From Flectonema sp. DT1601 (taxonomy: Eukaryota): a stretch of DNA of 64,000 bases. The stretch is from the NCBI GenBank assembly GCA_964019425.1, contig OZ025782.1, positions 1,488,001-1,552,000 of the forward strand, written 5' to 3'. The translations under genes and the position numbers were made by a program. The notes below the pieces were generated by a model, which saw only the letters and a list, made by a program, of their open reading frames with translations, did no database searches and was not told the DNA's origin. Below, piece after piece: positions 797-54,300 of this stretch. The first letter of the stretch is position 1. The number at the start of each line of letters is the position of its first letter.

Positions 797-3314
797 CTAC
801 AACACCTGTTTTTTTTTTTTTTTTTTTTTTTTTATTATTTAAAATAAGAAGAACAGTACACCATTATTATAACACATACCTGGAAGTTTTCTCTAAATCG
901 CGATCTAAATTTAAACCAGTCAGGTGTGAGAACACCACCGACTGCAACAGCACCTTTCTCACCCTTACGGAGGACGAACTGTTATTTGTTGTTACACATT
1001 TTTGATTAGAAATAATATGGAAAAATAAGATTTGAATGCGTACCTTGTCATCACAGACCAACGACCCCTTTTTAAACCCAGATTGCCAACCATTTCCTCG
1101 AAGTTGAGAAGAAAACTTTCTCAGAGTTAACTCTCCTACATATGTAGCAGATTGTCCCTGTTGATCTTTAACAGGCATTAAAACTGGGTATTTTCCCTTC
1201 GTGGAGTCTACAGAACGGCGTTTGATAGGAGGTTGATCTGTGTCGTCTTGCACACCTTCCGAGATAATTCCTTCAACGTAAGCAGCTTTGTATTCACCGC
1301 AGTCAACAAGTCTGATTGCTGACATTAATGTGTCAGCTAGCTTTACTCTTGTGATTGTTATGTTTGAAGTAATGTCAACACGTTCTCCTCTCTTTGGAGA
1401 GAATACAGATTTTACAGTACACTCCTTGCGAACATACTCAGTGAGGTCATCAGTTAAGTCTGTTGGGGAGTTCACGACGACAAGTTTTTGTGTATGAGCA
1501 CACTTTGATTTAATTACGTGTTTTAATGTATTAGCATCTGCTAAACCTTCGAATGGGAAGTACATGATCTTACAGCGGAGTTGAATAGCAACGGATTGCT
1601 TCTCATATTTCTTAGGAATTGGAAGCTCATCGACAGTCTTTGGTCTGGCTGATTCTTGAGCTTCCCATTCTCGTACACGTCTGTCACGTTCTTCATCACG
1701 AACTAAGTCTCTGAGAACTGCCGTCGCAACGTCATCATTTTGATGTAATTTTGAAAGGATGTCGAAGTTGACAGTTTCACCGTATTCGTCCTTTTCACAT
1801 CCGTCATCTCCATCGATAAAAGGAAACATGAGATGCGCTGATTTATATGTCACGGAATCAGGTAAAAACAAACCAGGTGTTGCTTCTATAGGAGCGAATA
1901 ATGCTTTCTCCTGGTCAGGGTTTGAGTCATCATCGGAACTTTCATCGTCGTCACCATCTTTGATTTCACGGACTCGTTGACGAGCACGTTGGGCTTCAGC
2001 GACTGCACTTTCTTCATCGAGGCGTTTTTGTTCTCTTTCTCTCCATGAACGCATTTCCTCTGCTGGTAGAGGGACTTGACGCCATACGTTTACTAACATT
2101 GTTTGCCCTGATTGGTCTTGTCCTAAGTGGTCCTCAAGGATTCTTCTAGCTACACTGTCTTCAGTAGAATCATCAAAAATCATAATTAAATTTTCTTTCT
2201 CTTCACCCCATTGAAGCATTAAGTCTAAACTATATCCCAAATCCATTGAAGCTGGTGTTGCAAATATTACTTTCTTTCCTGGGATGTCATCAAGCTCTGA
2301 TCTGTTTCTACAAAATCTCATAATCCCTCGTTGTATAAAACTCATTTGATTAATTCCACGAGTTTCGAATATATGTTTTATCTTTTCAGACATGTATTCA
2401 AGACCCTGTTCTGCCATTGCAACCGTACATTCTCCATATTCACATAGAAATACGACGCTGTAAGGAGAACGATCTTCACCGTATGTATCGTACCAGTGAC
2501 CCTCAAGGATAAGGGCAAGTTCAAGAATCTTACCTGTTGCGTCGCAGGGTATCAAAACGTTTCCATCCTTACGAAGCGTATCCATTACAGTTTTCACGAT
2601 ATCATCGTCCCTGTTAGGTGCTATTGGTCTTACATCTAACGACTTCGCGCTTGTTATGCAAACCGCACTTTTATGCAATGCCGTAAGGTCTGCAGGAGGT
2701 AAATGCCTATCTGCTTTATGGTTAAAAAACGGAGCATAAGAAACATCATCTGAATCTTTAACAATATGCCAAATGCATCCACCGAGAAGATGACCAGCAG
2801 AGGCTGGTGATATGAAAACATCTCCGGTATCGTCAAGTGATGTCTTTTGAAGAATTACGGTAGTTTTTGGTGTGATCCGATGCATTTCATAAAACTTTAA
2901 AGTCGTCATCAGCTGGGCAGCAGCGTCAATACTCTCACTACTGTACGGAGCTTTCCCATTACGTTCTAGTGCATAATTCTGTATGTCGTAAAGGGTAACG
3001 TGTCCCATTGATTTTACCGGTTGAGTACAATACACCGGACATGCTAGTCCAGTATGTTCAACGAGATATGGCAAAGCTCCAATTTGTGCAAAATTCGAAC
3101 CAGATAAAAGCACGCAATCAATTTGTGTTTCTTTTACTACTCTTACCATTTCAGAGATGTCTGCAACGTCCATGGTATCTCTCCAACCACAATCCAGAAG
3201 TATGGTAAAACCTTTTTCGGTATCACTTTTTCCTAACTCCAACAAATAAGATAACGGCTCATCACCATGAACCCCGTTTATAGGAGTGAAGTAACTCCCA
3301 ACTTTGGAGCTCAT
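797..3314 (-). CDS. CPSF2: CPSF subunit 2 (CPSF100); exons 3314-1044, 978-880, 805-797 (~792 aa)
   Basis: Metallo-beta-lactamase/beta-CASP fold lacking the HxHxDH zinc motif (ILLDCGW, IGALPY, AGHLLGGCIW, GNVLIPCD, MFPF…DEYGE). Removing two GT-AG introns gives a CPSF100-like C-terminus, …LVCDDK/FVLRKGEKGAVAVGGVLTPDWFKFRSRFRENFQ/VL*. Confidence 0.9.
806..879 (-). other. Spliceosomal intron, 74 nt (CPSF2 intron 2)
   Basis: GTATGT…(A)n-CAG, followed by GTG TTG TAG in frame. Confidence 0.7.
979..1043 (-). other. Spliceosomal intron, 65 nt (CPSF2 intron 1)
   Basis: GTACGC…TTCTAAT…ACAACAAATAACAG; restores the conserved C-terminal frame. Confidence 0.85.
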
Positions 3315-3359
3315 CTTGTTTGATGATCTCTGTGATAGAATGACGAAGTTATGGCTTAC

Positions 3360-3390
3360 CTAAAAAAGGGAAAAAAAGGAAGAAAAAAAA
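3360..3390 (-). promoter_or_regulatory. Putative trans-splice acceptor (polypyrimidine tract + AG) of CPSF2
   Basis: Minus strand TTTTTTTTCTTCCTTTTTTTCCCTTTTTTAG, ending ~45 nt upstream of ATG 3314. Confidence 0.55.
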
Positions 3391-5722: not shown

Positions 5723-5786
5723 TTTGTTTAGATTTGTTAAATGAGGTACTGGTGATGAATGATATTTATTAACTACGTTGAGATTG

Positions 5787-5836: not shown

Positions 5837-8800
5837 GAGCATATGAAAAGAGACCAACAAACTGTTGTGTTACTACTGAAGTGGGGGAAACTATTGAAGT
5901 AAATGCGCAATAACTATAAATTATATAATTCACACAAACGCAACGGTACGATTCCACCTCAAGAATTCAGATTGGGGGGGCAGAGGCAGGGGATACAAGC
6001 TGTCGATAAAGCGCTTTTTTTTTTTTTTTTTTTTTCTCGAATTTTTGGCAATAAAAACCTTTCCGGCAAGAATTACCCAAATTTCCATCATAACCTCTAA
6101 AAATGTGATTCCAAAAACCTGATCTTGGCTGATTTGGACAAAGGAATGAAAAAACTCAAAGCGGGGATCGTGTGGTACCTGGGGTCCACACGGTCCACAC
6201 TTTTTGAAATTTTCAAAGACTTGTTTAAGTGCCGAAGAACTGTTTCTTTGGATCGCAATCCCTATTTTTGAGGTATGTGTTGTAGTTTTTGGCTGCCCAA
6301 AGACATTGTTCTCCGAAAATATCCGAAGTGCCCAAAATCTCCGTAAAATCGATGCATGTAACCCCTCCTCCAAGGGGTAGAGGGGATGAGATGGGCACAG
6401 AGAAACGGTTCGCACAAATCTCAATTTCTGTTACGCTAAAAAGTAATGAACCAATACAACAGCTAATCGTGGTATGATTAATATCTTTGAATAAACCTTT
6501 GATCAATACTAGTTATTATTTCAGTGTACAAGACATCTGAAATAATGCATGTAATTGAGTTAAAGAAATGTAAGGGAACAGACAGACAGATGTCAAGAAA
6601 AATAAAAAGAAATAGTTGGCTACGACTACAACAACAACAATGCTAAGGCGAACACATACTCTAAAGGCTTCAGTCAATTAGTAGCACATCAAGGTTGCCG
6701 CGGATGCTGGGACATCATGAGGGAGGCAGGGATACTGTCGCAAACAAATAATCAAACGACCCGGATGAAGAAACAAAAAAAAAAAGATTTTCAACAAAAA
6801 GGTCAATCAAGCAATTTATAGGCCTTGGGACGCCAGATCAGCAGAGTTATTCTTTTTTTTCGTCTTCATCCATCTTCGTCCTGAAATAGTCGAAAGTGAT
6901 CTGCAGATTTCACGAAAGGACAGATTTTGATAGCACTCAAATACAGGACTTTAATCCAGAAATGTGTTCTGCTAAAAAGCTTGAAGTTTTATTTTTTTTT
7001 ATCATAGCAGTCTTGTTGAAAAATGGGAAAAACAAATACTCAGCAGACATTGCAACCGTGTACACGAAAGGAAAGGAAAAAAAAAAAAAAAAAAAAAAGA
7101 GTGTGGTGAAAAGTGACCATAAAAAACAAACAAGTAGATAGTTTCGCGAACTTATCTTAAGGGGACATTTCAAAAAAAAAAACTTTAAAAAAAAGTCACA
7201 AACAGTCACGATATGACCAGAGAGCTATAAAAAGCACCCAGGGAGGTAAGCTTGGTGAACACTTGTAAGAAACAAGCATTTGCAACCACTACGCTTAATA
7301 CTTTCACCTACGAGGTTTGGGCTGGGGCACAGCAAAAAACATTGCTTCCGATAGGGGCGGGGGAAAATTTATGAAAAACATAAATATACGCGCTATACTA
7401 ATATAAAAACAATTAGTAGTTTACGACGTAGGGGTCTTAATACGATCCGAAAAGATGGGGGGTTTGAAATGAATGTTGAATATGAAGAAACAAATATCTG
7501 TATTGCACCAGAGTTAACTAAAATAAAACGTTAACCGTGATACAGTAGTACTAAAGGTAATGTTAGTATAGAGGACTTTACATTATAATAAACCATGTCT
7601 CTTTTTTCCGTTTTGCTTGTGCAGTACGGAATCAAATTATTCAATTTTTTAAATGGTCGTGAGAATAGGGCGGGGGGGACTTGGATAAATAAATCAAGGT
7701 TAACACGCAACAAATTAGACATGAATCATTATAACTGGATTCTGTCCACACAAAATCGCATGCTTTAAATAAACTACCAGAGAAAGAAATGCTGTCAAGT
7801 CAAATTGACCCGGGGACCACGCACTACAGGTTGAGCATCCCATGCCCTGCAGGTCGTTACAGCTTGGGGGGGGAGGGTAAGAGGCATTTCATGCTGAAAT
7901 GAAATACCAGATTACCATAAGGTCTAATTTACCTTTTCTTTTTTTTCTTTTTTTTTTTTTCTTCCCTTTTCGCCTTTTCTTTCACAGGTCTTCTGCATTT
8001 CAAGACAAACGAAGTAGGAATTTCACGGGTTAAAACTATTCAGATTAGCCTTATATTTCGTTGAACGCAGACAAAAAAATCCTGTTTGCACAGGGAATTA
8101 AGTCATATCGGCCATAGGAAAAGTCGGCTTTCATCTCAATGGTTTATTCTCTGACTACGTTGGTATAAAAGAAACGCAAAAAAAAAAAAAAAAAAAAAGA
8201 ATCACAAGAACAAAAAAGATACGAGTAACGTATGTTACAATCGCATGAAAAAAAGTAAAAAAAATATTTAAAAAAAAAAGGGAAAAAGCTATAATTTCAC
8301 ATAAAAGTTTGTGAAATAGTCAGATCACGACCTGAGGGTGCTGAAACACCCACATCACGCAGTCAGACGTTGTGCCACCCCTCGCTCAGATCAGCATCTC
8401 TGAAAGCAGTAGGTCATCAATGGTGCGGGAACGAAGCCTTGTCTTTAGGAGCATTTGCGCTCATGCTGCTACCTGCGTCTGACAGGAGAGGGAATGTGTC
8501 ACGACATTGTGTATTGCGATCCGACATTTCAATAACATTCGCGGTGTGGAATTAGGGGTTTGCCCAATTTAAAAAAAAAAAAAAAAAAAAATTGAAAAAA
8601 CGAGAAATTCTTGGAAAAAAAAAACACAGCAAGATGTGTGTCCCAGTTGGTGGCTATTTCTCACGGTACCGCACGACAAAACGAGAAAGAGAGGGAGCTC
8701 CGCTAATAAATTAGTCGCACTGTCTGAATACTACCAGGAAATGGAGCAAATATGATGGGGATGCGGGGACACGAAAATACATGGGGAAAAGTCAAGGAAC

Positions 8801-9041
8801 CCGATATGTGATCGTTTCGTTCGTTGATTTTTGCAAACAGTCAATCGATAAGTAGAATTATCAATCGTCGTGTTTTGGTTTTTAATTTACTGCGAAAAAA
8901 AAAATATGATTAAACCCAAATAACTGATACCACTCATCTTGATTTCTTTTTTCTACATTTTCCTTTTTTTTTTTTCTTTCTTTTTTTTTGAAAAAATCCT
9001 TTTTATTTTTAATTAAAAAAAGAAAAAACGAGGGGGAAAAC

Positions 9042-9072
<31 letters not shown>

Positions 9073-9508
9073 GAGAAACTATTGACTAACGTGGTGGGTC
9101 ACTCATTTGGTTTTTTTTTTTCCAAAAAAGAACAAAAAAAAAATTTGAAGAAGAAAAACACTATGCAAATGTGCAAAGCTGACTCGTTGCAAAAAAACAA
9201 CTTTTACTGTTATTAGAATGAATATAAGAAAAAAACGTTCTCGGAAACAAGAAACAAAGGCAAGAACCTAATTTTTTTTTTTCTCCAACGTTCTGAAAAA
9301 AAAAATGGAAGAAGCGGTGAACTTGGTGCGCTTATGCCGTGTCATGACTTCCCTTCTAAATTGTAAAAAATGTAATATAATTACATACTCCTTTTACAAC
9401 CTTTCAAACAGCGAAGAGAAACTAACTAGTTGACCATATAACAATAATGGAAAGAGAAAACGATTAGGGAAAGAACAGAAACATTTCAATACAGTACACT
9501 GTGTAATA

Positions 9509-9541
<33 letters not shown>

Positions 9542-12349: not shown

Positions 12350-12515
12350 ATTATATTCTGATGTGTATAACTGTTTTAATCAATAATATATTTAACAAGA
12401 AACACAAACCAACGAATCACTAATATGTTAACAGGTACAATAACTTTAAAAAGAATAAAATTTCTAAAGGGGAACAATACATCAACCCTCATTACACAGA
12501 TGTCTCTACATCACA

Positions 12516-16378: not shown

Positions 16379-17167
16379 CAGGTGACTGTGTGTTGAGGAA
16401 GAAATATATATGTTTTTGTTCAGAGGGATTGCTTACGATAATCGATAAGTTGAAAAACCTAATAATATGAAAATATTAGATTATAATTATCTAAATAAAC
16501 TGTTGCTTGGCATGTTGAAAGCAGCGTGGTATGCATCTTTCAACATCTAAATACAAAGCAGACCCATAGGTACTTCTTGAATGAAGTTGCCCTTTGCGAT
16601 TCCCGCTCGTTATGTTTCTTTTTTTTTTTTTTTTTTTTTTTTTCATTCAAAAAAAAAGAGTAAGATTCCTTAATCTGAAGGGACACACCACTCCTTTCAT
16701 AAGGGGACGTAAACCCAGAAAGCGATGTCGCTTTTCTTATTATTCAGCCTTTTTTTTTTTTTTTTTGAGAAAAAAAAAAAACTGTAATTCATTTATCGTT
16801 TATCCGTTTGAAAGACACGAATCATGAGAAGAGCTCATATTAGGTGAGAAGAAAATAAACTACAAAAAAAAAAAAAAAAAAAAAAAAAGAGTTGGCAATA
16901 TGATTACCTTTTTTTTTTTTTTTTTTTTCCGGTTTTTTTTAGTCACATGTTCAATAAAAACTGTACGATAACGTGCGGGTTAGAAAAGACCATTGATCAT
17001 ACTTATCTTAAAGTTAAAGAAGGAAGGGAAAAAAAACAGATGGTTTGTCTTCTCACAGGGATCACTTTGACTTCCCCTTCTTGAGACACAAGTGAATACA
17101 TCGGAAGGGATCGATCCCCACAAAAAAATATCAAAGGGGAAAAAGGAGAACAAGAACACGAGCACTC

Positions 17168-18232: not shown

Positions 18233-18591
18233 TTTTGTTGTTTTTGGTTTTATCCGTATCGTTTTACTGTTGGTAAAAATAATAAAGTTAATAATCAAAC
18301 AGTGCAAGCAATCATCACAATGAGTTTACTCTTTATCATCCACAACAATTATAGATGACTAGTATGTCAAAGGAGAAAATATTTCGCAAAGTACACCCAC
18401 TGACAAAGACCAGAGGATGTTTTTTTTTTTTTTTTTTTTTTTACTTTTTTTTTTTTTTTATTCGCTCGCTTATTTCTTACAAGAAGATATATCGCAATTA
18501 AAATCGAGGTGTTAAAAATATATTTATTGGGAACGTGTCAGCACTCTCATGCGAGAGAAGACAATGCCACAAGCTAGTAAAAGCCAAGGTA

Positions 18592-18629
<38 letters not shown>

Positions 18630-19295: not shown

Positions 19296-19460
19296 TTGGT
19301 TAGGTTTGTATGTAATACCTGAAGGGTGTTAGAAGTAAGTGATTATTAGTAGTAAAAATAAAAAGTTAAAAATCCATCGTAAAAGTGTAACAATGTCATT
19401 TCATTGAAGTTGTAAAAGTGACCATGAATGTGGTTGTGGTTAATTGATATCAGTAGTATA

Positions 19461-19815: not shown

Positions 19816-20374
19816 CTATTTTTCTATTTGTTGGAGTAGAGCTTGAATTTGGGTAAGTTGTTTTCGGGTGTCAAAGTTCTGTTTTTCAATATTTTTTTTT
19901 TTTTTTACAAAATAATCACATCTTGACAAGCAAGTATACCTTTTGAATCCCCTTCATACAAGCAGTGAAGATGTCTTCTATGTCAGAACGAAGTTGTTTA
20001 AATGAATCTGTTGTAGCAGTTCTGTGGTCGTCTTCAAGTTGTAGTCGCCGTCGCTTAATATTTTCATGAGTTGAATTGATCGACTGTGCCTTTGATATAC
20101 ATATCGATAACTCTTTCAATTTTAATTCCAATTCAGTTGTTATACTGTTCGTCACATCATCACATTGCTGTACCGCCGTAGCCCACTTTTTTATTACATT
20201 AATTTCTTCTTCTCGATCGTTTTTTGAATTTTGTAACATCGAAATACACTCTTCTTCAACCATCGTCAACAACGACTTGCTTGTACTTATTTTCTCAATC
20301 GGCTTTGAAATTGTTTTATGTAGTAGTTTCGCCATTTGGAACAAATCTTCATCAGCGGTGGGTGTTTTAGACAT
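19816..20374 (-). CDS. Hypothetical helical/coiled-coil protein; exons 20374-19940, 19878-19816
   Basis: ORF plus a 61-nt intron giving an in-frame last exon NFDTRKQLTQIQALLQQIEK*. Confidence 0.65.
19879..19939 (-). other. Spliceosomal intron, 61 nt
   Basis: GTATAC…(A)n-TATTGAAAAACAG, phase 0. Confidence 0.65.
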
Positions 20375-22162: not shown

Positions 22163-22701
22163 TTAGAGAACCAATCCCTCGACTTCCTCAATCTCAAGTA
22201 AAACTCCTGAAGTAGTTTTTGGATGAAAGAACAATACCGGATTACCATGTGCTCCAATTTTTGTATTTTCAGAGAGTGGTTTTAGTCCGTTTGCAATAGC
22301 TTCCTTTCGTGATTCCTGTTTTTTGATTTAATTTTGATGAATTAGAATGAAAAATTAACAGTCTAGTCTATAATACATACCTCAATATTGGCTACCTCAA
22401 CACATATGTGATGAATACCACCGACTGGGTTCTTTTTTATGAAACTTCCAACTGGCGATGACTCGCCTAATGGATGTAAAAGTTCTAACTTTGTGTTTGC
22501 CAACTCTACGAAAACGGTTGTAACTCCGTGTTCTGGAAGGTCAAACGGCTCGCTTACTTTCGCATTAAACATGTCTTTGTATGGCTGTGCTGCCTTCATG
22601 ATGCATTGCTCTTTTGGTACAGCAATAGCAACGTGTCCGAGACGACCCTTAATTGGGAGGTTGCTACTACAGAATCCCCTTCTGACGGCGTTGCGAAACA
22701 T
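22163..22701 (-). CDS. MCEE: Methylmalonyl-CoA epimerase, mitochondrial-type; exons 22701-22381, 22315-22163 (157 aa)
   Basis: LGHVAIAVP, LPEHGVTTVFV, KLELLHPLG, GGIHHICVEV; exon 2 supplies KIGAHGNPVLFFHPKTTSGVLLEIEE; Arg-rich presequence MFRNAVRR. Confidence 0.93.
22316..22380 (-). other. Spliceosomal intron, 65 nt (MCEE)
   Basis: GTATGT…TTCTAAT…AAATCAAAAAACAG; joins two conserved MCEE halves in frame. Confidence 0.9.
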
Positions 22702-26624: not shown

Positions 26625-27262
26625 TTAACTGGTGAGGAAATATATTTAAGGAAAGGCAGCAATGTGAATGGTCACTCCACGCGAATCATCAATGTGCTGC
26701 TTGTAGAGGAAAGGTAATTGTCTGTACCAGGAATATTAAACAGAAAGAAGGTCAGCAATGGGTAATTTAAAGCATGAGAATTGTAACTCTGAGTTTTTGA
26801 AAGCATCCAATTGGAGCGGGGGATTGGTTCAGTGTTGCGCCTCCCCCTGCCTCCGTTTTTTTTTTTTTTTTTTTTCCCCCTTCTCCTATCCAACACCTCA
26901 CCCCGAAACTAGGCCGACAACGTGATGCTGTTTTGCGCGGCAAAGATTGCTCAGCATGAATATCAGCCTTTTTTTTTTTTTTTTTTTCATTCTTTTTTTC
27001 TTTCCAAAAAACTGCCTAACAAATAAGGTTGGCATTCTTTTTTCTTCGCTGGGCCGACGATGTCAACTACTAAAAATCAAAAAATTAAAAAAAAATAAAA
27101 AACTGTTAAGCTATGAGGTGAAAGGAAATGCGACTTCACAACTGACTTCAATTGCATTTATGAAAAAATGCAAGGCAATGAATAACTTCATTGGTTTATA
27201 AGCCTTGTACATAAAACACCTTCAGGTGGAGTAGTTAATCAACCATCACTGCTTACTAGCGG

Positions 27263-29384: not shown

Positions 29385-32300
29385 TTATTTTTTATTTCCT
29401 TCGTGCGGTTTTATCCCCATAGACATAAGTCGATTTCTATTTAAATCTGAGAAAAGTGCATCATGGAGTCTCGACTCCAACTTCCCAGTCACTCCAATGC
29501 GTTTTAAATGAATAACATTTGTATTACTCATTGAAAGAGGATTTACAGCATTTTTTGATTGAAAAATCTTTTGTTTATTCTTGGTAAATTGTAAAACTGA
29601 TGATAAATTTTGACTACTGTGAGCTGTTCTCATCCACGACTTAACGTCAACAATAACATGTCTCAAACTACTAACTTGATCTTTAATAATATCGATAAGC
29701 AATTTCAACCTTGTATCCTTAGGTACAACACCCTGAATAAATTGAGTCACATCAAGCCAATCAACGAACAAAGTCAAACTTTTTTTTAATGTTCGAAGGA
29801 CATCCTTAGAAGAATACACATCAGGCATTCTTGATTTCAAAAATGCATGCAGCAACACAGCTGTTGGATGAGGTCCGTCGGCACATTCGAACGACGACTC
29901 TATATCTCTGATGGAGGTAGTGACGTCTAGTTCTGTGTTATTTTCAAACGACTTTACAACATCGGAACTAACTTTCGCAATGTACTGAATACTTGACAGT
30001 ATCGAGGTACCATTTTTCAAGTCTACTTCTAGGTCAGATTTGAACACATTGAAATCTTTTTGTTGTTCTTGTAAAAAATCTGCAATCGTCAAGTTCGATC
30101 CCCGGTCAGTTCCAAATCCTGGATTGAACGCAAACTCAAATCTTTTTTGAAAAGCTCCAATAAACAACATCCATCGTTCTCTCATTGAATGAATTTCTTG
30201 ATTCTTATCTTTTATTCTATTCTCGCCCGAATCATTCTTTTCTAGTAAGTCGTGTGTACTCAAAAACGAATCTTTAACTTCACAAAAAGACTTAAACAGC
30301 TTTGCAGCCAACTGTGCTGCGGGAATTAGAATTTGAAGTTTATGTTTGGCTCTGAGAGAATGAATGTAGTTTCGTTTTGTCTTTAATTGGTCTTGAGTTT
30401 TTCCAACTTCAGATTGACTGGGTTTGATGATCATTAGAAAGGTTCCTTTCTTACCTTGACGTGCTGTTCTTCCAGCTGCTTGTTGTTCTACTCTGGTGTT
30501 GATCGGGAGGAATGTACAGATGACGTGCATGCCTCCATTTTTTTCACTTGTTGAAAGTGTGGTAATATCCATTCCTCGACCTGCTAAGTTTGTTGATGAG
30601 GTTATGGTTCCTGGTCGACCAGCATCTTGAAGAATCTTATCTTCATCTTTTGACTGAATACCAGTATACAACTGACATGTATCACCAAGTGAAGAGTGAA
30701 TAAGTTCTGCGTCTCGAATGCTGTCTGAGATAACCAAAACAGGTCGTTGATTTTGTTGAGATTCCCTTCTTGCACTGGATAACACTGCGGATAACCATTC
30801 TTCTTCACTAGTACTGGCTAGTACAATTGTTGAATCAGTTCTCTTTGAAACTGATGATGGTGGAATGTAAAAGAAATTAAGACTGTAACAGACGTCAAAC
30901 TCTCTTCTGTCATCTACCTCACCTATTGTTCCTGTGAGACCAATTTTACGATTGTACAGTTGAAAGAATGCGAGAACACTGCTGAAACCTCCAGTCATAT
31001 TCTCATCTGTTACTTCAACTCCCTCTCTCACTTGAATAAATTGATGAATTCCGTTTGGTAAAACCATCGATGCTTGGATAGCTCCGGTATTCTTATTGTC
31101 AACTTTTATAACTTTTCCTTCTTTAACAAAATATTCATGTTTGTTGACTAACTCTTTACTCTTTATAGCACTTCGAACCCAGGTATCGATGTTGGTATTT
31201 ATAATATTACGAAGACCCTTGTGCTTCACGCTATGTACTGTCGGATGGTTTAAGATGTCTTGTGCTAAAGCAGCGGGATCGACAGTACCCCATTCTTGCA
31301 TTTTATTGCTAATGAGAAAATAGATCCAGTGAAGCTGTTCCATTCCTGGAATGAAAGCAGAGAGTCTCGCTGATTGACCTGTTTATATTTGTTTTTTTTT
31401 GTGTTTTTTGTTTTTGATCAGTAGATTACTTTTTATACTACCACCCTCAACAACATACCAGAATTATCAATAAGCATATTATCAACCTCGTCAATGATAA
31501 CAGTTTGGTAGGGACGACTATCTCTGTGAGTTCGATTCATGTAGACGTCTCTTATAAATGTAAATTGAAATTGAGAAACAGTTCCATAAATAACATCCGA
31601 TGTGTACGATGCTTTATTATTTTGTCTGCAATTATGATCGACCGTCACATTAAACAAAGAGAAGAATCTTGACATCTTTGACGCATCACGTTTTGCTAAT
31701 ATTTCTGAACTCGTCATCACATCAACTTTCTGATTATTGTGAAGAACCTCATAAGCTGCTGCCATTGCTATGACTATGGTTTTTCCTTCACCTGTTTTCA
31801 TGTCACCAATGTTCGATTTGCTCTCTGAAGCAACGTCTGTTAAAGATAACAATGCCAAGATTTGATAGTTATTTGGACGAAAGTGAAATGCCATAAAAAC
31901 TGCTTCTTTTATCAAATAAATTAAGAAAATCCTTCTCATGGTCTTGTGTCTTGGAGGGTATTTAAATGACAACACTTCAGATAATTTTTTTTGAAATTCT
32001 GAAACAGTTCCAACCTCATCTGGATAAGGCATCTGAGGAAGTGAGTCTTCACTATCTGGGAGAAGTGTAGAAGACAGATCAAGTGGATCTGTCTTGTCAT
32101 TAGCTTTAGCCTTAAATTCTTTATTTAACTTTGCGACGAACTTTGCTCCATTAACACGTTGTACTTCTCGATAATGATTAGCAACCGAAGCGCATAATTG
32201 TTTATTGGAATCGTTTTGGTTTCTTCTACGAAATTGTTTTAATACTTCGTCACTGTACTCCCACCTCTCTCGTGTGTCTTCTTGACATAAAAATAGAATT

Positions 32301-35494: not shown

Positions 35495-36247
35495 CGTTGA
35501 GTGCCTTTGCTTAGGGGAGATAAATTAATTAATACCGGGTTGTGATGTTTTTTTTTTTCTTTTTTGAAAAGTGTCTTTTTTGAAAGTCAGTGAAGTCAAA
35601 ACCACTGTTACATTATAATAATTTCTTTACCTGATTAACTAAATAAGAAGTAATACATTTCACGCGATTTAATTAAAGAAGTCCACGGGGAGGTGAGAGC
35701 ACCCGCGTTACGTGCTCCAAAAAAAAGAAAGGAGCACTTCATTTCTTATGTTTTATTTATTTTTTTTTCATTTTGGGCTTTTTCTCGTTCCACAGAGGGA
35801 ATGCGAACAATTTTTTTTTTCCTCCCCCTTTTTTTTTCAAAAAAAAAAAAAAAAGGAAGGGGAGGTAAATTGATACTATATTATCAGCTCAAAGGAACAA
35901 CAATCTCTCCGACAATCTTGACTGTCAGCGGCAGCGTAGTAAATGACTGCAAATAAGTAAATAATGCCACCGGAGGCTCCATTTACCTATGCTACTAGAA
36001 AGGGGAAAAACAGCTTCGTTGTCTGTAGGCGAAGTTAATTCCCAGCCGAGTACAGTTCTTGGTGCAAAGAAGCTCGTTGAGAAGGAAAAAGAAGGGCGTA
36101 GTCACCTCCGATTTCATTTTCATTTATTCGAGTATAGCTGGTGGAATGCAGTGCTCGCATGCTGCTCTACTCGTATCCAGCTGGGGTTTTCAATTACTCT
36201 AAAAAGCAGCAGCAAAATAGTAACCGAGCGAACCACAGGTGAGCAGC

Positions 36248-39167: not shown

Positions 39168-39214
<47 letters not shown>

Positions 39215-42200: not shown

Positions 42201-42289
42201 AAAGTGGGAGAACGACAACGATAGAAAAAGGGCTTACTGACTAAGTTACAAGGCAGGGAGCGTGATACTGTCCGATGACAAGATGCAGT

Positions 42290-42324
<35 letters not shown>

Positions 42325-43839
42325 AATCATATTTCTCTCACATCTTTATATATCTTTTTATACCCACAAGGGACTACGGCTCATCAGACTATCACTCGAA
42401 CAAAGCCGATTAAGTGACCACAGAGAGGAATTCAATACCAAAGCACGCGATGCCATTAACAGCAGCATACAGCGTCTATTTTTTTTAAAGAACATAAAAT
42501 ACAAAACCGTAATTCGAAACATAAACATCAAAGGGGACTCATACAGTGTAATGTCGATTGAAAACATGGTCACATAAGGTGTTTCTTGTGCATCTTTTTT
42601 TTTTTTTTTTTCTTTTTAAAAAAGGCCGAAAACAAAATACCTAGAATCTGTTACCAACGTTGCATGTAGGGTAGTAAAAACAAGAGTTTCGTTAAAAAAA
42701 CAATTTTTTTTTTATTTTTTTTTTTTTTTTTTTAGTCATCGGTGCATGTCACACTGTTTTAAAAAAAAAAAATATCAAAAAAAAAGTTGCGTAAAATGCA
42801 TAGCGATGTGTTAGTTTTGCGAGAAGAAAAAAACGGCGGGACTGCAGACAGGTGTGTGTCTTGTCAATCCGTGTGTTAAGAAAAGGAAGGGGGAAAAAAA
42901 AACAATTCTTAATTTTTTTTAACCCTCAAATTCATTGAACTTTTGTGTTTGCTTGTGAGCGTAGATAATGAAAAAAATAAAAAAATAAAGTGGCTTTTGC
43001 GCGAACTATTTTGCTTGCAATCAACGAAGAGCACTTTGGTTTGAAGAATCGGATTAGGATGATGCAAAAAATCATCTCAAACCACAAATTGATGCGTGCG
43101 CTGCCTACTTTATTTTTTTTTTTTTTTCCGTGCTTGTTTTGCCAAAAGCCACTCATCCACACGCCAATTAGGGGGGTAAAGCTGTTTGAGCATATTCATA
43201 AAGACATTCATATTGTATCCGAACAACGATACAAGTGACAAAAGGTGATGTCAATTAGACAGGGGTAAAAAAAGTTTGACGATATAGAACCCATCAATAG
43301 GGGGGTGAGAGTTATTTTCCTTAAACCATGAACAACGTTTCCAAAGAAGTCTGTCTGAATAGAGCAGTTTTTTTTTTTTTTTTTTTTTTTTTGGGAAGGG
43401 GAAAGAGAAATCGGAACAACAATTCTGAACCGATATAAGCAGTGGGTAGGCACAGAAAGTCTCGCTAGTCCATTACGAATTGAACCAAAGAAAACTTTCC
43501 TAATACTGCAGTGAATAGGTTAAACCTCATTCTGAAAGAATTATATGAGATTTTTCAAATCATAATTTCCCGTCTTTCAGTAAAGGTGACAGTCTGTCTC
43601 GGGGCTATAAACCTCCTTACCAAAACAAAACAAAAAAATAAAATGAAAAAGGGGGGGGGGAAAAAAAAACATAGCAAGAAGGCGTATGATCCAACGTTGC
43701 TGTACTAATAATAGTCTTTATTATTATTATTTTTTTATTTTATTTTTTTGCTATGACCATGGTGATAGTAATTAAGAAACACATAACAAAAGAAAAAAAG
43801 GGGAGCACCTGTATTGCCAAACATTAGACACAACCTGAA

Positions 43840-43878
<39 letters not shown>

Positions 43879-44317
43879 CGCAGCCTGACACACCTCCTTC
43901 AGTGCCAAACACCTTTTCAGGCTGCTATTCTTCACTACAGAAATCATAAACGCAGGAGATAAAGCAATACAGATATAGTACTTGGTACAGATATTTAGAT
44001 TCGGATTTTGAGGAGGGTAGAAGAAATTTTAAAAAAAAAAGGAATTGTTAAGCATTAAAGCTAGCCACAAGAAAGAAGAAGCAAAAGTCGAAAAAACGAC
44101 TAAAAGAAAAGGGAAAAAAAAACAAGCAGACACCCCCCTCCCCCCAGACTTCATAGTTTGAAGGAAGAACGGGATATCACATATGTGTATCATTAATAAC
44201 ATAAAAACCATAATTCAACATCTGTTAAGGATATGGTTAACTAGTTATTATCGGCTTGTGATATGGCAAAAAGAGGTTCCAGGAAAGAATAGGGGAAAAA
44301 AACGAATGAGTAACCGG

Positions 44318-46507: not shown

Positions 46508-46926
46508 AATTCATACTGTTAAGATGGAAGGTAAAAAATTAATTATTTTTTTGATTACACAATAGCAACACTTCCCACAAAATAAGTTAGTATTAATAAT
46601 TAGTACTAATAATGTTTATCAGTCAAAAGAAGGGGAGAGGGCGGGAAAATTCAATCGAATGCAAAAGTTCGTAGGACAACAAACAAATAATGGTTGGTTT
46701 CGGGCTAAAATTAAAAAATCTTTCTTCGGACCGTTCCCCTTACCCAGCGAAGAAAGTAAGGGGGACACTGCGGTGTCAGGTCTGTCCTACTCATCGCGTT
46801 TGCCCTCATCAGCTGGGAGAGGAAATTAGTTAGTTAGCAAAAAAATACAAAACTGATGGCTACGAGGAGTCTGGGTTATTTATCCCATGAATGAGTTATA
46901 CTGTAGAGATGAAAGTTTTTTTATAA

Positions 46927-46957
<31 letters not shown>

Positions 46958-47861: not shown

Positions 47862-50051
47862 TCATTGGATGATGCAAGCAGAACCACATCCGACATCCAT
47901 ACAGTTGCTCTCAACAGGTTTGTAGCTTTTTATATCACACCTCGTGTTTGATCTGAGAGGGACAGTTGTTGTTCCTCCACGTAGCCGAAGACCTTCACTG
48001 GCGCGAGATCGACGTTGGTGAACTCTTTTAGATGCCGACCTTCCTCTATGAGGACGAGGAATGGGTTTAGAACCGTTTCTGTATTTCCATTTAAAGAATC
48101 TTTGAATTATCGCTGCAGATTCGTGACGGTCGATATTTAATTCCGTTTCTCTTCTTTTTTTATAAAAAGTTGGTCCTTCCCAAATACCGTCTTGATAGTC
48201 TTCTGTGGAGTGTAATGTTGTACATGATAGGTCAAGCTGTATCTCTACTTCTCCACAAGCTGGTTTGCTTTCCATAATCAGCATTTCAATTACATCGTCA
48301 GGTACCTCTGGGTGTTCTTTAAACCACGGATGAAACATAGCTTGTTGAGCGTCTATTCTACTACTGGGTTCGAACTGAATTAATTGTTGTAAAAGATTAA
48401 CTGCGCTATCCCTTTCAAAGTCTGGTTGAATACCTGACTTCCAACAGACGTCAAGCATATCTGAAAGTGTTCTACGTGGTAAGAGGTATGATGTATTTTT
48501 TGAAAATTTCGCAACGCTGTTTGATTCTCGTGAGATAGCACCATTACCGTTTGAAGGTATTTGATGTTCAGCCATCGATGCGGGTATTTTAAAACCCGTT
48601 TCTTGGATTATTTCTTCAGTTCCTGTTAAGTTTTGACATCCCAAAATCAACTCAACCTGATGCTGGTCATCTTGTCCAGGAAATAATGGAACTCCCGTCA
48701 GTAGCTCAGCAAGAATACATCCAGTACTCCACATGTCTGATGCGCTTGTTGTCTTTTTTGAACATAATAATACTTCAGGTGCTCTATACCACTGTGTTTG
48801 TACATAGTCAGGGGTATCTGCGAGTGATGTTTCAGTCCCGTCAGAGAGCGTTCTCGCTAATCCAAAATCTGATAAATAACATCTAGGCGATTCATCCACT
48901 AGTAAGTTAGTTGGTTTCAAGTCTCTGTGAACAACACCTCTTGCATGGATGTATGCTAAGGCTGACAGAAGTTCAATCATGAATATTTTTTTATGTTCGA
49001 TATCAAGTTTTCGTTGAACGAGTAGATCCTCACAAGTATACGTAACAAAAGGCATCACCAAGTGAACGTCTTTTTTATTTTTATCAATAAAAACATCATT
49101 CAGAGCGACAATGTTGGGGTGGCGGAGTTGTTGTAGAATTTGAATTTCACGATATGTTCGTTGACCTAATATTTGATGTGACCAAGTGTCGTGAATTGTT
49201 TTTACAGCCACTATCGTTCCACTGTCTTTTCGTACAGCTTTACTGACTATGCCGTATGCTCCTCTACCGACCATGCCACCAAACTGATAATTTCGTAGAA
49301 GGCGCGGATCTGAAACAATTACTTTTGTACTTCCCCAAAAACTGTGAACCTTACCTCCGTTGACTTGTTTTGTCGGTTTTTTTAATTTTGCTTCTGAAAG
49401 CGACGGTTCGACAGCCCATGCACTCGGGTCATTTGATCTGTACAAGTGATGACTATACTCGTCTATGAGTTCTCTCATTCCTTTAGTGAATTCAGATATT
49501 GATTGATTTCTATTTGAAAGCTGCTCATGACTATTAGGAGCTGCATCTATTAAAGCAGAGTACTCACCCTCAACAGCAGCCTTTGCCTTTTGTGCATAAC
49601 CTAAACCAGCAGAAAGAAATGTCCATCGAAGTGGATCAACTATATATTTGTGATTGGGAAGATTTTTGTTATATTTTTTTACAATTTTTGATACAGCGAT
49701 ACCATTTAAATACATAAACCAAAGTACAAGTATTACATCATCGTATGCATTCGACAGCTGCGTCAGAACAATACCATGTTCCTGAGCAAAGCTGTATCGT
49801 CTGAATTCCCTGGCTGATTCCAATACCTGTCTTACTCTGCTTAGGGCTTTTAATTTTCTATTTACAACTTTCTGAACTCTGGTTATCTCTTCTTCTAATT
49901 TTTGAGTAAATCCTGCTGCCCTATCTTTTTCTAATAGTGGTGGGGTTGGTTTTCTTATTAATATTTTCTTCAGACAATCGTAGTCTAGAGACTCAGCTGC
50001 TACACTGTGGCGGTCGCTTACCTTACGAAGAAACTTACCAAACCCAACCAT
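47862..50051 (-). CDS. SPX-domain + MAPK-like (CMGC) kinase + IQ motif + CaaX, paralog B
   Basis: SPX: MVGFGKFL…LDYDCLKKIL, F.QKLEEEI.RV, YLNGIAVSKIVKKYNK. Same kinase motifs as paralog A. IQ: AAIIQRFFKW. Ends CIIQ. Confidence 0.9.
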   Translation of the reverse strand: MVGFGKFLRKVSDRHSVAAESLDYDCLKKILIRKPTPPLLEKDRAAGFTQKLEEEITRVQKVVNRKLKALSRVRQVLESAREFRRYSFAQEHGIVLTQLSNAYDDVILVLWFMYLNGIAVSKIVKKYNKNLPNHKYIVDPLRWTFLSAGLGYAQKAKAAVEGEYSALIDAAPNSHEQLSNRNQSISEFTKGMRELIDEYSHHLYRSNDPSAWAVEPSLSEAKLKKPTKQVNGGKVHSFWGSTKVIVSDPRLLRNYQFGGMVGRGAYGIVSKAVRKDSGTIVAVKTIHDTWSHQILGQRTYREIQILQQLRHPNIVALNDVFIDKNKKDVHLVMPFVTYTCEDLLVQRKLDIEHKKIFMIELLSALAYIHARGVVHRDLKPTNLLVDESPRCYLSDFGLARTLSDGTETSLADTPDYVQTQWYRAPEVLLCSKKTTSASDMWSTGCILAELLTGVPLFPGQDDQHQVELILGCQNLTGTEEIIQETGFKIPASMAEHQIPSNGNGAISRESNSVAKFSKNTSYLLPRRTLSDMLDVCWKSGIQPDFERDSAVNLLQQLIQFEPSSRIDAQQAMFHPWFKEHPEVPDDVIEMLIMESKPACGEVEIQLDLSCTTLHSTEDYQDGIWEGPTFYKKRRETELNIDRHESAAIIQRFFKWKYRNGSKPIPRPHRGRSASKRVHQRRSRASEGLRLRGGTTTVPLRSNTRCDIKSYKPVESNCMDVGCGSACIIQ

Positions 50052-51074
50052 TTGTATGGGCTGTGAAGGAGAAATATTATTTTAACAAAGAAGAAATAAA
50101 TACAATAAAACTCTCAACTTATCTTTTCGTTGGTTTTTTTATGTTACAACGTGCGACTCTTTATTTATTGTCAGATTCTACCTAAGGAAGAGGAAGGGGA
50201 AAAGTCGGTAAGATGTATTGTTCATGTTCCCCTTCTTCTTCTTCTTATTTTTTTTTTCCTTAAAATATCTCATTTCTACAAAGGGTGAATGCTTCGAATA
50301 TTGAGAATGAAAATACTTGCCCGGAGATACAGATGAAATGTTGTTTAATCCATCTTACAACATTTTTTTCATCATTTCTTTTTTTCTAAAAAAAAAAAAA
50401 CTGACTCCTTATCGGTGTGTTTTTTTTTTTTTTTTTTTTTTCCTTTAAACTAAAGTGTGCTTTAGGATATGTTCGGAGGAACTATCAAAGTCAACTTGTG
50501 AAAAACAACAAAAAAAAATAATTTTTCCCGACGTCTTCACTATACTGTAGTATTATTTTACCTTTCAAGATTTCAAAGTAAAGAAGTAATTATTGTTAAG
50601 AAACAAAGAACGGGGGAGAAAAAGGGAAATTAGAAGAAAAAAAAAAAGGACTATCGACCAGACCCAACAGTGCAATAATATTTCACCTTATCAGTGGGAA
50701 GGGGGACTACAGCGTCTCTCACCATCGATGTTTCGCAATATTTACAGCGATATGTTATTATTATTATTAATTTTTTTTATTATCGTTTTTTTTTATTTTT
50801 CCCCCTCTGTTTGGACTGACTCACCAGATATATTCTCAGCTCAACTTAACTAAATCGAGACTACCTTTTTTTTTTTTTTTTTTGGTGAGCAGCAGATAAT
50901 ATAAAAAAGAAGGGGGGAAAAAAAAAGATGAAAAAGCCCTTCAAAAATAGGAAAGGAAAAAAAAAAAAAGTTATTTAAGTGCGATTATTATTACTTATAT
51001 AAAAAAAAGGGGAAGAAAAAAAAGAAAAAAGAGGGGGGAAAAAAAGAAATTCTTTAAAACATGTTTTTTTTTTT

Positions 51075-52051
51075 CTATCCACTGGCATTGGCTTGGAATT
51101 TGTCATAAAATTCATCGTCCTCTTCATCCTCGTCATCGTCGTCGTCAGCGTCATCGGCGAGTTCTTCAGTTTTTGTCATTATATAAACGTGATAGTGAGA
51201 CGATGGTGAGGCGTCACTTGAGAATACTGGTTTATCAATCATGCGGTGATCAACTTCCCAACACAATCTTTTCCTTCTAAAATGATCAATACGAGTATCA
51301 GCCTGTCCGTAAGACACGCATACATATTTTGCTCCCTTTTTCATTACTCTCGAGACTGTTTTTTTTTTTGGAATTTTTTTTTTTTTTTAAAAAAAAAAAA
51401 GAATTGGCTTTTTATCTTAAAACTATAACACTGTGATGTTTTGTTTGTGTCACGAAACCGTGAACCGACTTAAACTGATAAAGCTAAAGGAGGTTTATGT
51501 GTGTTGCCAACATTCTTTTTCGTTCTCACAATACTTGTTAAATGCAAAAAAAAAAAAAAAAAAAAAAAAAACCATACTTTGCTTATTAACCTGGTATGCA
51601 ACGTGGAAACTATTACTACCGCAGAGCAACGCATCAATGGTTGCCTTAATAATTACAAGGTCGAAGGTGCCTTCATTGAAATCCATTTTCGAAGCATCCA
51701 TTTTGATCCACTGCATCTTATCTAATTCTTTATAGCGATTCTTCATCTGACTTATAACAACATCACTGATGTCAACGTTGACAACGTCCTGCACTCCGGA
51801 ATCATAGAGTTGAGAGCTGAGACCTGTTTGTTTGTTTGTTTGTTTTGTCGATTTTTTTTTTTGTCAATTATACAAAACAAAAAGAATTACATACGTGAAT
51901 TACCACATCCAACAACTAACACTTTACTGTCAGGTTTCGCTAGTGGTGCTAAAATTTCCTTTAAGGGTTCGTAGGACACGTACCAATCAAAAGTTGTGTC
52001 ATTTGCTTTGTATCTTTCATCCCAATAATCGGCTTTGCCATATTCAGGCAT
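51075..52051 (-). CDS. EEF1AKMT4/METTL13-N-like class I methyltransferase; exons 52051-51895, 51823-51578, 51355-51075 (227 aa)
   Basis: Spliced translation: MPEYGKADYWDERY…FDWY…VLVVGCGNSRLS..LYDSG…NVDIS..VI.QM…MDA..M.F..GTFDLVI.KATIDALLCG…ISRVMKKG..YV.VSYGQ…HYHVYIM, then an acidic tail. Confidence 0.88.
51356..51577 (-). other. Spliceosomal intron, 222 nt, containing the SINE-like element
   Basis: GTATGG…(A)nCAG, phase 1, frame-restoring (…VNKQ I SRVMKK…). Confidence 0.85.
51402..51571 (+). mobile_element. SINE-like element with 3' poly(A), intronic copy antisense to the host gene
   Basis: Near-identical to 38354-38522; followed by a ~26-nt A tract and preceded by another A tract. Confidence 0.6.
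51824..51894 (-). other. Spliceosomal intron, 71 nt
   Basis: GTATGT…(AAAC)nAG; restores GCGNSRLS. Confidence 0.9.
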
Positions 52052-53006
52052 GTTATATTATTGGTTTTTTTTATAAAGTAATTCCTGTTATGAACACGGT
52101 TTTTTAAAGGGGAAAAAAAAAAAGGGAAGAAATTATGTATTATTATTTTTTTTTTTTTTTGTTAGACTTATGTGCCCAAAAAAAGTAAGTTTTTGTTGTT
52201 GTTTTTTTTTTTTTTTTTTTTACATTGTCAAAACGATGCGAATATTCCACCCACTGCAAACAGAAAAACAATGAGCATTAATAATGAAGATGACTGCTGC
52301 TCATCTTAACCCAAAATTTGTCAAGTCAAGGATGTGGTGATGTTTCTTTTGTTTCCCCCATTCCTTTTTTTTTTTTTTTTTTCCCTCTTCACTTTTTTTT
52401 TTTTTTTCCATCATTCCTCCGTCGTTCTAACTGAGACATCGTCGAGTCAAAATTAGTATGGAGGCGCAATTATAAGGGAAAACAAGTAACATTTTCCTTA
52501 TGCCAGTCACCATAACTACCCACATCCTGCCAGCAAGCAATCGGATATTTGTAGGCAAGGGAGGGTACAATACGAGAATATATACTTTAAAAAAAAAAAA
52601 CACACATCAAAACATAATATTCAGTGCAAAATGGCAAGCAATAATTTATTCACAGAAAAAACGCAGTGATTGATTTAAAAAAAAAAAAAAAGCGACGAGA
52701 AAGAATAAAAAAAATCATTCTCGTTGTCGCATTCTTTCAGAAGAATCTTTTTTTTTTTTTTTTCCTTTTTTTCCTTTTTTTTTTTCTTCTTTAAAATCAA
52801 CCAGTAGTGTTTTAGTGCACCGGCCTACTAGCCGGAACGATCATTTTTCCTACCAGAGTAAAGACCCCCACGTAATAACAACAACAACAAACTTCGCATC
52901 CTCAGGCGCAATCACTCAACGGTGTCGAATCAGGCAACACATGTCAGTTAAAGTCTTAAGCGACTATAAATAATACTGGAATGACCTTCGTAGTAAAATA
53001 ACATCT

Positions 53007-54300
53007 CTAATCAATCCCCTCTATGTCAGTTGTGATGGTCGGCTCCAGTTTCCGTTTTTTCTTCTCCTCTTCAAGAGTGTCCTCCTGTTGTTGTTATTGT
53101 TATTTACAAAGATTAATATGTTGTGGGAATTGAGTAAAAAACATAAAATTAATAAATAAAAACAAACCAATGAACCTGCAAACGATAACGCTGCTTCAAG
53201 TTTTTGCTTTGCGAGTACCTGTTTTTGATTTTTTATTTTTTTTTTACTGACAAACAATTAATGATCATTTTTTCTGATAACTACAACACAAGACATACCC
53301 TTTTTTCTGCTTCAGCGACTTCGGCAGCCTCGGCTGCGGATTTCTCAGTGAGGCGACGCATCTTCGCTATCGGGTCGGCAAGCTCAATCATTTCATTAGT
53401 TACTTCATCTCCTCTAGCAGCTGCTTGAATTGCGTCAATAAGCCCTTGGGTATACGGAGGAAGCATTTTTTCAGGCATGGGAAGATCTTTTTCGTGAGCT
53501 GCTTGCTCAGCTAATTGTCGCTCTCTGGCCTGCGCAAGACGAGTAGCGTCGTCTTCGGTGAAAGACTCTTCAGTGCATTTGGTGGGTAGTTTTGGTTCAC
53601 CAGGTCCAGGGGCGAGATCCTTCTCAAGAAATCGATTTAACGGATAAAAACAAACAGCTATATACCGACCATCAAATGGACGGAGGTGTAAAGCACGTTG
53701 TGCTTCATCTGCTGCAGCATCTGAGTCGAACCAAACAAACAATCGAACTGCTTCACAGTCTGGGAAGGTGGTGTCTTGAACTTCATAAGCAGTCGCCTTT
53801 CTCACTGTCCCATATTGTGTTGCGGCTGCTATTAATTCCTCTCGGAGGGTAGCGTCGACTTGTCCTCTGCCTACCATATTTCTAATTAGAATTACTTCAG
53901 ATTTTCTTTTTTTATTTGCGCGTTTTCGCTGCTGATCTTTTGCTTTACGTTGAACGGATGTTAAGACTGACCTCTCCATTGCTGATCGAAGTTGAATTAA
54001 AGACATGTATTGGAAATGTGTTTGTTGTTGTGCCTTACGAAGGTAAACAGGTATCACTTTGATCCATTCTTTTTCCATTTTTGGATTCCCTTTTAAGTTT
54101 TCTGGAGGTTCTTGCAGATCTTCAGGTGAGAAGTTCAGTCTTTTTCCAGTAGAGCCATACACCACCAATTGAGTGGGTTTAAGTTCCTCTCCTCCCGTTA
54201 TAGTGAGAGGTACTGCTGCTGGTTGTTGTAACTTCCCTCTCTCTTTATTTATTATATTGGCTAGTACCGCCTGTACGACATGGTCACCCGCATCGCCCAT
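53007..54300 (-). CDS. SPF45/RBM17-like UHM (RRM) splicing factor; exons 54300-53299, 53218-53168, 53084-53007
   Basis: UHM: VILIRNMVG.GQVD..L.EE…YG.V…EAVRLFV.F…R.FDGR.I…FY…F…DLAP. Two 3' introns give the in-frame tail VLAKQKLEAALSFAGSL/EDTLEEEKKKRKLE…GID*. Confidence 0.75.
53085..53167 (-). other. Spliceosomal intron, 83 nt
   Basis: GTTTGT…AATAACAATAACAACAACAG, phase 0. The donor choice is inferred from frame. Confidence 0.6.
53219..53298 (-). other. Spliceosomal intron, 80 nt
   Basis: GTATGT…AAAAATAAAAAATCAAAAACAG, phase 0. Confidence 0.7.

Follow-up and report, generated by a model that had tools for sequence, protein, structure and literature searches.

A-rich cis-intron ends differ from presumed spliced-leader acceptors in a gene cluster of the diplonemid Flectonema sp. 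DT1601

In Diplonema japonicum, introns open with a GTATG donor and close with a CAG acceptor, and A is the most frequent base of the tract before the acceptor (Thakur et al. 2025, PMC12621601). The same source gives a weak A in this tract for L. lanifica and R. humris and a preference for C in others. In D. papillatum, essentially all mRNAs carry the spliced leader (SL) and genes lie in polycistronic clusters (PMC10161547). A cell in which all mRNAs receive a leader by trans-splicing must somehow keep it off its many intron acceptors. For kinetoplastids the problem hardly arises, as they have almost no introns, and their three cis introns have pyrimidine tracts (PMC11613528). In S. mansoni, acceptors used in trans are U-richer and have longer pyrimidine tracts than those used only in cis (PMC5832876). 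The A-rich character of cis acceptors is therefore already published for D. japonicum (PMC12621601), but the available portions of that paper hold no comparison with trans-splice acceptors. No comparison between cis acceptors and leader acceptors of any diplonemid was found in the literature, the supplements of PMC10161547 and PMC12621601 not being covered, and the contrast between the two within one genome appears to be unreported. Here we compare them in a stretch of 64,000 nucleotides (nt) from the marine unicellular diplonemid Flectonema sp. DT1601 (contig OZ025782.1, positions 1,488,001 to 1,552,000), hereafter the window, which contains nine predicted cis introns and a series of presumed SL acceptors upstream of start codons. 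All positions below are those of the window.

An earlier note, made from the sequence of the window alone, had proposed that cis acceptors and presumed trans-splice acceptors differ in composition, and this contrast holds when the sites are chosen blindly. The presumed SL acceptor of each gene was taken as the last CAG no more than 60 nt before the ATG, for which 18 of 21 genes qualify; the genes at 546, 21753 and 35494 have no such CAG and were left out, two of them carrying AAG sites named in the earlier note. Composition was calculated over positions -20 to -4, with 232 intergenic CAGs as background (A 0.28, C 0.18, G 0.19, T 0.35). The nine intron ends (A 0.77, C 0.09, G 0.02, T 0.12; pyrimidines, Y, 0.21) are strongly enriched in A over this background (p=5e-7). 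They also differ from the 18 pre-ATG CAGs (A 0.31, T 0.42, G 0.07, Y 0.62) in both A (p=3e-5) and T (p=6e-5), with no difference in G. The longest pyrimidine run is 1-5 nt in the cis class against 2-24 nt before ATGs (p=0.001), and AACAG ends 9/9 introns against 5/18 pre-ATG sites (p=6e-4). Avoidance of G and the CAG itself are common to both classes, and avoidance of U is found in the cis class only. In a strict subset, comprising the seven introns whose junctions are exact by homology and 14 pre-ATG sites from the 17 supported genes, the A contents do not overlap at all (0.53-1.00 versus 0.24-0.47, p=3e-4). The contrast is driven by the unusual introns, the pre-ATG class being approximately the T-rich background minus G. 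We think it probable that the contrast holds across the genome. With the cis and presumed trans compositions barely overlapping, the question of how the leader is excluded from introns becomes directly testable.

The setting of these sites is a same-strand gene cluster. All 21 gene models with a start inside the window lie on the minus strand, and 17 have Pfam or homolog support; a partial open reading frame (ORF) at 62768-64000 was excluded because its upstream region is missing. The CPSF100 protein (3314-797, minus strand) is 85% identical to that of Flectonema neradi, 51% to that of Diplonema japonicum and 46% to that of Lacrimia lanifica, and a second gene product is likewise 85% identical to an F. 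neradi protein. Judged by these protein sequences, the window is nuclear DNA of a diplonemid near F. neradi. The lineage proposed in the earlier note, a polycistronic and trans-splicing euglenozoan, was thus the right one. Trans-splicing itself is to be expected here, given the same-strand clusters and the near-universal leader published for D. papillatum (PMC10161547).

All nine introns named in the earlier note are present on the minus strand, begin GT(A/T) and end AACAG, and eight of them are 61-83 nt long. They are as follows.

806..879, minus strand: CPSF100 intron 2, 74 nt, GTATGT donor, 25-nt A run, AACAG
979..1043, minus strand: CPSF100 intron 1, 65 nt, GTACG donor, AACAG
19879..19939, minus strand: predicted intron of a coiled-coil gene (start 20374), 61 nt, placed from sequence only
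22316..22380, minus strand: intron of a methylmalonyl-CoA epimerase gene, 65 nt, placed on PDB 3rmu
31379..31458, minus strand: intron of a SecA-domain gene, 80 nt, collinear with SecA
51356..51577, minus strand: intron of a methyltransferase gene, 222 nt, placed by the spacing of PDB 2pxx
51824..51894, minus strand: intron of the same methyltransferase gene, 71 nt, placed on PDB 2pxx
53085..53167, minus strand: intron 2 of an SPF45-like gene, 83 nt, GTTTG donor
53219..53298, minus strand: intron 1 of the SPF45-like gene, 80 nt

Protein homology places seven of the nine exactly at the junction and one by collinearity only, and the remaining one has no homolog. With both introns removed, CPSF100 comes to 792 residues and is thereby as long as P0020, an F. 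neradi transcript protein, which it matches to the last residue. A second F. neradi isoform, P0001, diverges at the position of intron 1, as a retained intron would; gene call P0004 also diverges there in the manner of intron read-through, and the position of this intron is apparently shared. Within 797-879, the final CPSF100 exon codes for just two residues and the stop. The spliced SPF45-like model of 376 residues aligns without gaps to the 376-residue F. neradi P0022, with 313 identities. In the epimerase, residue 106 of the 107-residue exon 1 aligns to residue 88 of 3rmu and residue 11 of exon 2 to residue 100, and on these positions the exons abut exactly. At methyltransferase intron 51824..51894, exon 1 ends at residue 54 of 2pxx and exon 2 begins at residue 56, the split codon being residue 55; across 51356..51577 the spliced model preserves the spacing of 2pxx residues 128-151 in a comparison made by eye. 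The SecA match runs up to residue 216 and resumes at residue 284 from residue 61 of exon 2, and is thus not residue-exact. For the coiled-coil gene, the sole match in a homolog search was the unspliced call from the window itself; an alternative GTATG donor at 19959 leads immediately to a stop.

Seven of the nine introns fall in the 3' third of their gene. Automatic gene calls run straight through the introns of the window and so miss them, which affects gene prediction. In the 21 coding regions, inspection by eye of the 60-nt windows lowest in GC revealed no hidden in-frame introns. The single long intron, of 222 nt, is one of ordinary size into which a 141-nt dispersed repeat (51424-51564) has been added; this repeat is 95% identical to 38390-38529. 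A partial third copy of 72 nt lies at 36249-36320, and on the transcribed strand a T run marks the start of the repeat. The U and A runs that flank it in the intron could loop the repeat out.

Donors are GTATG in six of the nine introns and GTACG, GTATA and GTTTG in one each; with CAG at 9/9 acceptors and A as the commonest base before it, the introns are of the D. japonicum type. Their GT...AG ends, and the proteins restored by their removal, are those of U2-type introns. The pyrimidine tract that is typical, if not universal, of that kind is absent before the AG, and we therefore file them as a variant of the major spliceosomal kind. For six relatives, evidence from junction reads and lariats and on U2 snRNPs is published (PMC12621601). 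The lack of a tract had been claimed in the earlier note and is borne out by the short pyrimidine runs and the Y of 0.21. Its description of the ends as A/C-rich is right for A alone, C being below background (0.09 versus 0.18), and its branch-like motifs do not significantly exceed the expectation from shuffled sequence (YTRAY in 6/9 introns versus 3.7 expected, P=0.10).

A closer inspection of the intron ends reveals a fixed arrangement. AACAG, which closes all nine introns, is found at only 23/1192 intergenic AGs and 57/2157 coding AGs. Among intergenic CAGs, 16/241 are at least as A-rich as the weakest intron end, and 3/241 also have AACAG. Thirteen A-rich AACAG sites occur on the transcribed strand, of which nine are intron ends and three lie in intergenic DNA. 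All nine introns have A at both -8 and -14. Upstream, the 5' part of the introns is T-rich (T 0.56 versus a background of 0.38, p=0.007), and the switch from T to A is fixed in position near -30, A rising from 0.24 at -50..-41 to 0.69 at -30..-21. An A-tract alone carries no mark, since just one of 151 intergenic runs of six or more A is followed by CAG.

One explanation of the A-tract is lineage-specific drift, fed by a relaxed U2AF65 requirement on short introns and by slippage in an AT-rich genome; the tract would then have no role against trans-splicing, and an upstream donor alone would decide between cis and trans. It draws support from the wide variation of the tract among relatives with a common SL biology (PMC12621601, PMC10161547), from the classical rule that an acceptor without a donor is a trans substrate (described in PMC5832876), and from a window full of runs (109 of eight or more A and 130 of eight or more T in intergenic DNA of the transcribed strand). 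However, simple drift would yield T runs as often as A runs, and the switch to A is position-fixed, one-sided and present in 9/9 introns on a strand that is T-rich overall (T 0.38). We therefore disfavour drift, while granting it some, clearly minor, likelihood.

The T-rich 5' part also raises the possibility that the A-rich 3' half pairs with a U-rich 5' half, as in the non-canonical introns of euglenozoans. The 222-nt intron does fold better than its shuffles (z -2.5), with a stem of the U run and A run around the inserted repeat. The eight short introns give z of -1.6 to +1.1, and their cognate ends pair no better than swapped ends (permutation p=0.16) or intergenic DNA, so that an end-pairing hairpin was rejected for them. 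With GT-AG ends and no specific pairing of 5' and 3' parts, the introns do not resemble the non-canonical kind, and we regard end pairing as extremely improbable.

Upstream of start codons, the six AGs listed in the earlier note were all found in place. They are indeed pyrimidine-rich (Y 0.74 over -30..-4), but they were hand-picked, and the effect is milder under blind rules applied to all genes, so the claim had been overstated. The last AG before each of the 21 ATGs has a Y of 0.59 versus 0.53 in the background (p=0.057), and choosing the most pyrimidine-rich AG gives 0.70 near random intergenic anchors versus 0.74 near ATGs. A firmer signal comes from the CAG itself. In 16/21 genes the ATG is preceded by a CAG no more than 40 nt away, versus 29% expected (p=9e-6), and the 18 blind sites are depleted of G (0.07 versus 0.19, p=1e-5). 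An acceptor class before ATGs is therefore statistically real. Donor-like motifs 45-110 nt upstream of these CAGs are in no excess (3/18 versus 19% in the background), and the idea that the CAGs end ordinary-sized introns within 5' untranslated regions (UTRs) was rejected on this ground. From their sequence, most pre-ATG CAGs are likely to be leader acceptors. Individual sites are given below.

556..590, minus strand: presumed trans acceptor of an Mtr4-like helicase (ATG 546), AAG at 558
3330..3389, minus strand: presumed trans acceptor zone of CPSF100 (ATG 3314), with a pure-pyrimidine TAG at 3360 (a site of the earlier note) and a CAG at 3330, from sequence and statistics
5749..5778, minus strand: presumed trans acceptor CAG of a cyclopropane synthase (ATG 5722, 26 nt on), A 0.41, Y 0.59, blind rule
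12358..12400, minus strand: A-richer CAGs at 12358 and 12371 (AAAACAG) before a 142-residue ORF, A 0.53, Y 0.41
16386..16415, minus strand: presumed trans acceptor CAG 7 nt before ATG 16378, Y 0.71, G 0
18267..18296, minus strand: presumed trans acceptor AACAG with a U-rich tract, nitronate monooxygenase, ATG 34 nt on, T 0.59, A 0.29
19319..19348, minus strand: presumed trans acceptor CAG of a SPRY gene, ATG 23 nt on, Y 0.76, preceded by a 157-nt AG-free stretch
26629..26658, minus strand: presumed trans acceptor CAG of a cathepsin (ATG 26603, 25 nt on), Y 0.65, G 0
35510..35539, minus strand: presumed trans acceptor AAG of the SecA-domain gene, ATG 15 nt on
46516..46545, minus strand: presumed trans acceptor CAG of kinase paralog 1, ATG 8 nt on, Y 0.76
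50061..50090, minus strand: presumed trans acceptor CAG of kinase paralog 2, ATG 9 nt on, Y 0.71
52085..52114, minus strand: pre-ATG AACAG of the methyltransferase gene with a mixed tract, A 0.47, Y 0.41

The two AAG sites, at 558 and 35510, were assigned by their sequence alone. The CPSF100 start at 3314 is backed by the F. neradi N-terminus, and four more AGs lie between the site at 3360 and this ATG. The 20 nt before the 21 ATGs, taken as 5' UTR, are A-rich (0.44-0.49) and follow a U-rich acceptor zone, the reverse of the order at intron ends. At 3360 and 47228 (minus strand), an intergenic AG is directly followed by GTAAG, an acceptor-like and a donor-like element in succession; the AG at 47228 is AAAAACAG. 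The AG-GTAAG 7-mer occurs six times on the minus strand and three times on the plus strand, and the two sites may be coincidental, or may serve in recursive splicing or in splicing of UTRs.

The contrast might be an artefact if the trans sites were misplaced, or as A-rich as the cis ones, with a single A-tolerant 3' splice-site code serving both. The three A-rich pre-ATG CAGs (12358, 52085 and 54324, A 0.47-0.53) would fit this, as would a presumed 5' UTR with a median of 23.5 nt under the CAG rule, compared with about 70 nt in D. papillatum (PMC10161547). Against it, CAG frequency and G-depletion both peak immediately upstream of the ATG, a pyrimidine CAG is retained 8-9 nt ahead of the ATG in each of the two kinase paralogs, and the three intergenic A-rich AACAG sites of the transcribed strand are too few to serve 21 genes. 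We consider an artefact very unlikely.

The observations themselves concern sequence classes, and the steps of the mechanism that follows are all ones we infer. U2AF65 prefers U, and short introns are as a rule defined through their donor. On the reading that we favour, and to which we give an even chance, a lack of U at intron ends keeps the leader off introns within a single spliceosome. The ordinary major spliceosome would remove the short introns and also add the leader. Short introns would be defined from their 5' side, by U1 at GUAUG and by the U-rich 5' part, and would need no uridine tract. The spacer that leads to the AG would avoid G, which leaves no stray AG, and U, which precludes mimicry of a trans acceptor; because G and U are both avoided in an AT-rich genome, A would fill it. 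The invariant AACAG is probably read positively, and the A-tract would arise mostly by exclusion. Trans acceptors, having no donor upstream, would rely on a uridine tract of the U2AF65 type. Such a code would oppose U-poor to U-rich sites on one spliceosome and call for no second machine. The U/C-richer CAGs before ATGs would then serve as SL acceptors, and the U-poor ends of introns would make poor acceptors for the leader. This is compatible with the presence of U2AF1/2 and a U2 spliceosome in the A-rich D. japonicum (PMC12621601) and with the weakening of the trypanosome trans-splice tract by purines (bioRxiv 10.64898/2026.10.18.760011). Exclusion, if true, would also explain the published poly(A) tract of D. 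japonicum introns.

The earlier note had gone further, proposing a possible two-code system with a non-standard route of 3' splice-site recognition. In its strongest form, a cis route through the A-tract and AACAG would be independent of U2AF65 across the genome and would insulate introns from trans-splicing; in this form we find the idea unlikely. In terms of factors, a protein other than U2AF65 would read the cis A-tract while U2AF65 is kept for SL trans-splicing, and candidate readers would be a diverged U2AF65 paralog, a protein of the SPF45/RBM17 type with a U2AF-homology motif (UHM), or another A-binding protein. We judge such a division of labour similarly doubtful. The uniformity of the introns speaks for it (AACAG and A at -8 and -14 in 9/9, pyrimidine runs of 1-5 nt), as does the replacement of U2AF by SPF45 on human short introns with truncated tracts (PMC8363638). 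Moreover, the window itself contains a UHM gene of this type, which bears two A-tract introns.

53007..54300, minus strand: SPF45/RBM17-like gene, U2AF-homology motif at residues 132-230 (PDB SPF45 UHM, E 7e-15)

This gene was missed by Pfam but is clear against PDB, its two A-tract introns lie near its 3' end, and its relative in D. papillatum is named DRT111 by NCBI. However, D. papillatum and humans have SPF45-like proteins as well, so that their presence is not specific, and the location of the gene in the window is a coincidence until otherwise shown. D. japonicum, moreover, has U2AF1/2 (PMC12621601), and A-tracts are common outside introns.

Several observations weigh against exclusion of the leader by U-poor intron ends. 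Ahead of the cis acceptor, C is the preferred base in five of six other diplonemids, and the tract of S. specki is C/T (PMC12621601); with C-rich or pyrimidine cis acceptors in these relatives, A-tracts are not required for keeping the two reactions apart. Of the earlier claim that A-tracts shield cis acceptors from trans-splicing, the contrast therefore stands and the necessity of the A-tract does not. The verified intron 53219..53298 contains a U-rich CAG, 28 nt upstream of its acceptor, that is skipped, so U-rich CAGs are tolerated within an intron. The pyrimidine excess of the pre-ATG CAGs is small (Y 0.62 versus 0.53, p=0.014), and resampling against random intergenic anchors gave no significant excess under the last-AG, longest-AG-free or best-pyrimidine rules (P 0.085, 0.26 and 0.09, respectively). 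Five of the 18 pre-ATG CAGs end in AACAG, and the three A-rich ones count here too: the mixed tract of the AACAG at 52085 weakens the two-class picture, and 12358..12400 is a possible counterexample to it, with the AAAACAG at 12371 lying 21 nt upstream of the start codon of an unverified ORF (12349). On the transcribed strand, A-rich AACAG shows weak avoidance (4/185 versus 21/325, p=0.03), which was not reproduced at the level of CAGs (p=0.38). Lastly, the analysis covers one window and nine introns.

The ORF in question (11921-12349, minus strand, 142 residues) yielded only weak Tudor-like leads, with Atlas scores below 0.9, and its status as a gene is unverified. A missed cis intron joining it to the gene at 14264 was rejected, as two homologs stop at the end of that gene and the ORF is unmatched. 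Two stretches of the window, 5870-11920 (6.2 kb) and 35500-44320 (8.8 kb), are without a recognisable gene and T-rich on the transcribed strand; by analogy with D. papillatum they may be very long 3' UTRs. The SecA-domain gene (29388-35494, minus strand) encodes a protein of 2009 residues that has a SecA-like ATPase at its C-terminal end, which is unusual in a plastid-free eukaryote, and a long N-terminal region without a Pfam match. The kinase genes (44321-46507 and 47865-50051, minus strand) are intronless tandem paralogs with 75% DNA identity over 1.15 kb. An Rfam scan of the window gave no matches at the gathering threshold. Metagenome scans recovered no close relatives: none of 289 pattern matches to the CPSF100 alignment was a relative, and the 80 of 157 loci retained for the cathepsin reached a top identity of 50%, none being a close relative.

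Set beside the known systems, the locus combines features of several. Human introns dependent on SPF45/RBM17 are likewise short with a truncated pyrimidine tract (8/9 are 61-83 nt here), but in the available portions of PMC8363638 they are a subset, not defined by an A-tract and unlinked to trans-splicing; the window, for its part, encodes an SPF45-like UHM protein. Kinetoplastids share the polycistronic same-strand genes, the AG near the ATG and, apparently, the U-rich, purine-poor tract (PMC11613528; bioRxiv 10.64898/2026.10.18.760011), and differ in that the pre-ATG tracts of the window are weaker and broken up by A. S. mansoni also has U-richer trans acceptors and one spliceosome, but there both classes have pyrimidine tracts and differ in degree, as described in PMC5832876, whereas the cis acceptors here have no tract and are 77% A. 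The nearest likeness is to D. japonicum (PMC12621601), which like the window organism belongs to the family Diplonemidae and shares the GTATG donor, the CAG acceptor, A as the commonest base of the last 20 nt, short introns and, apparently, a weak branch motif. It represents another lineage, with a CPSF100 that is 51% identical, the window organism being near F. neradi. Its introns are also shorter, with a median of 41 nt against 61-83 nt here (PMC12621601), and the invariant AACAG sets the introns described here apart.

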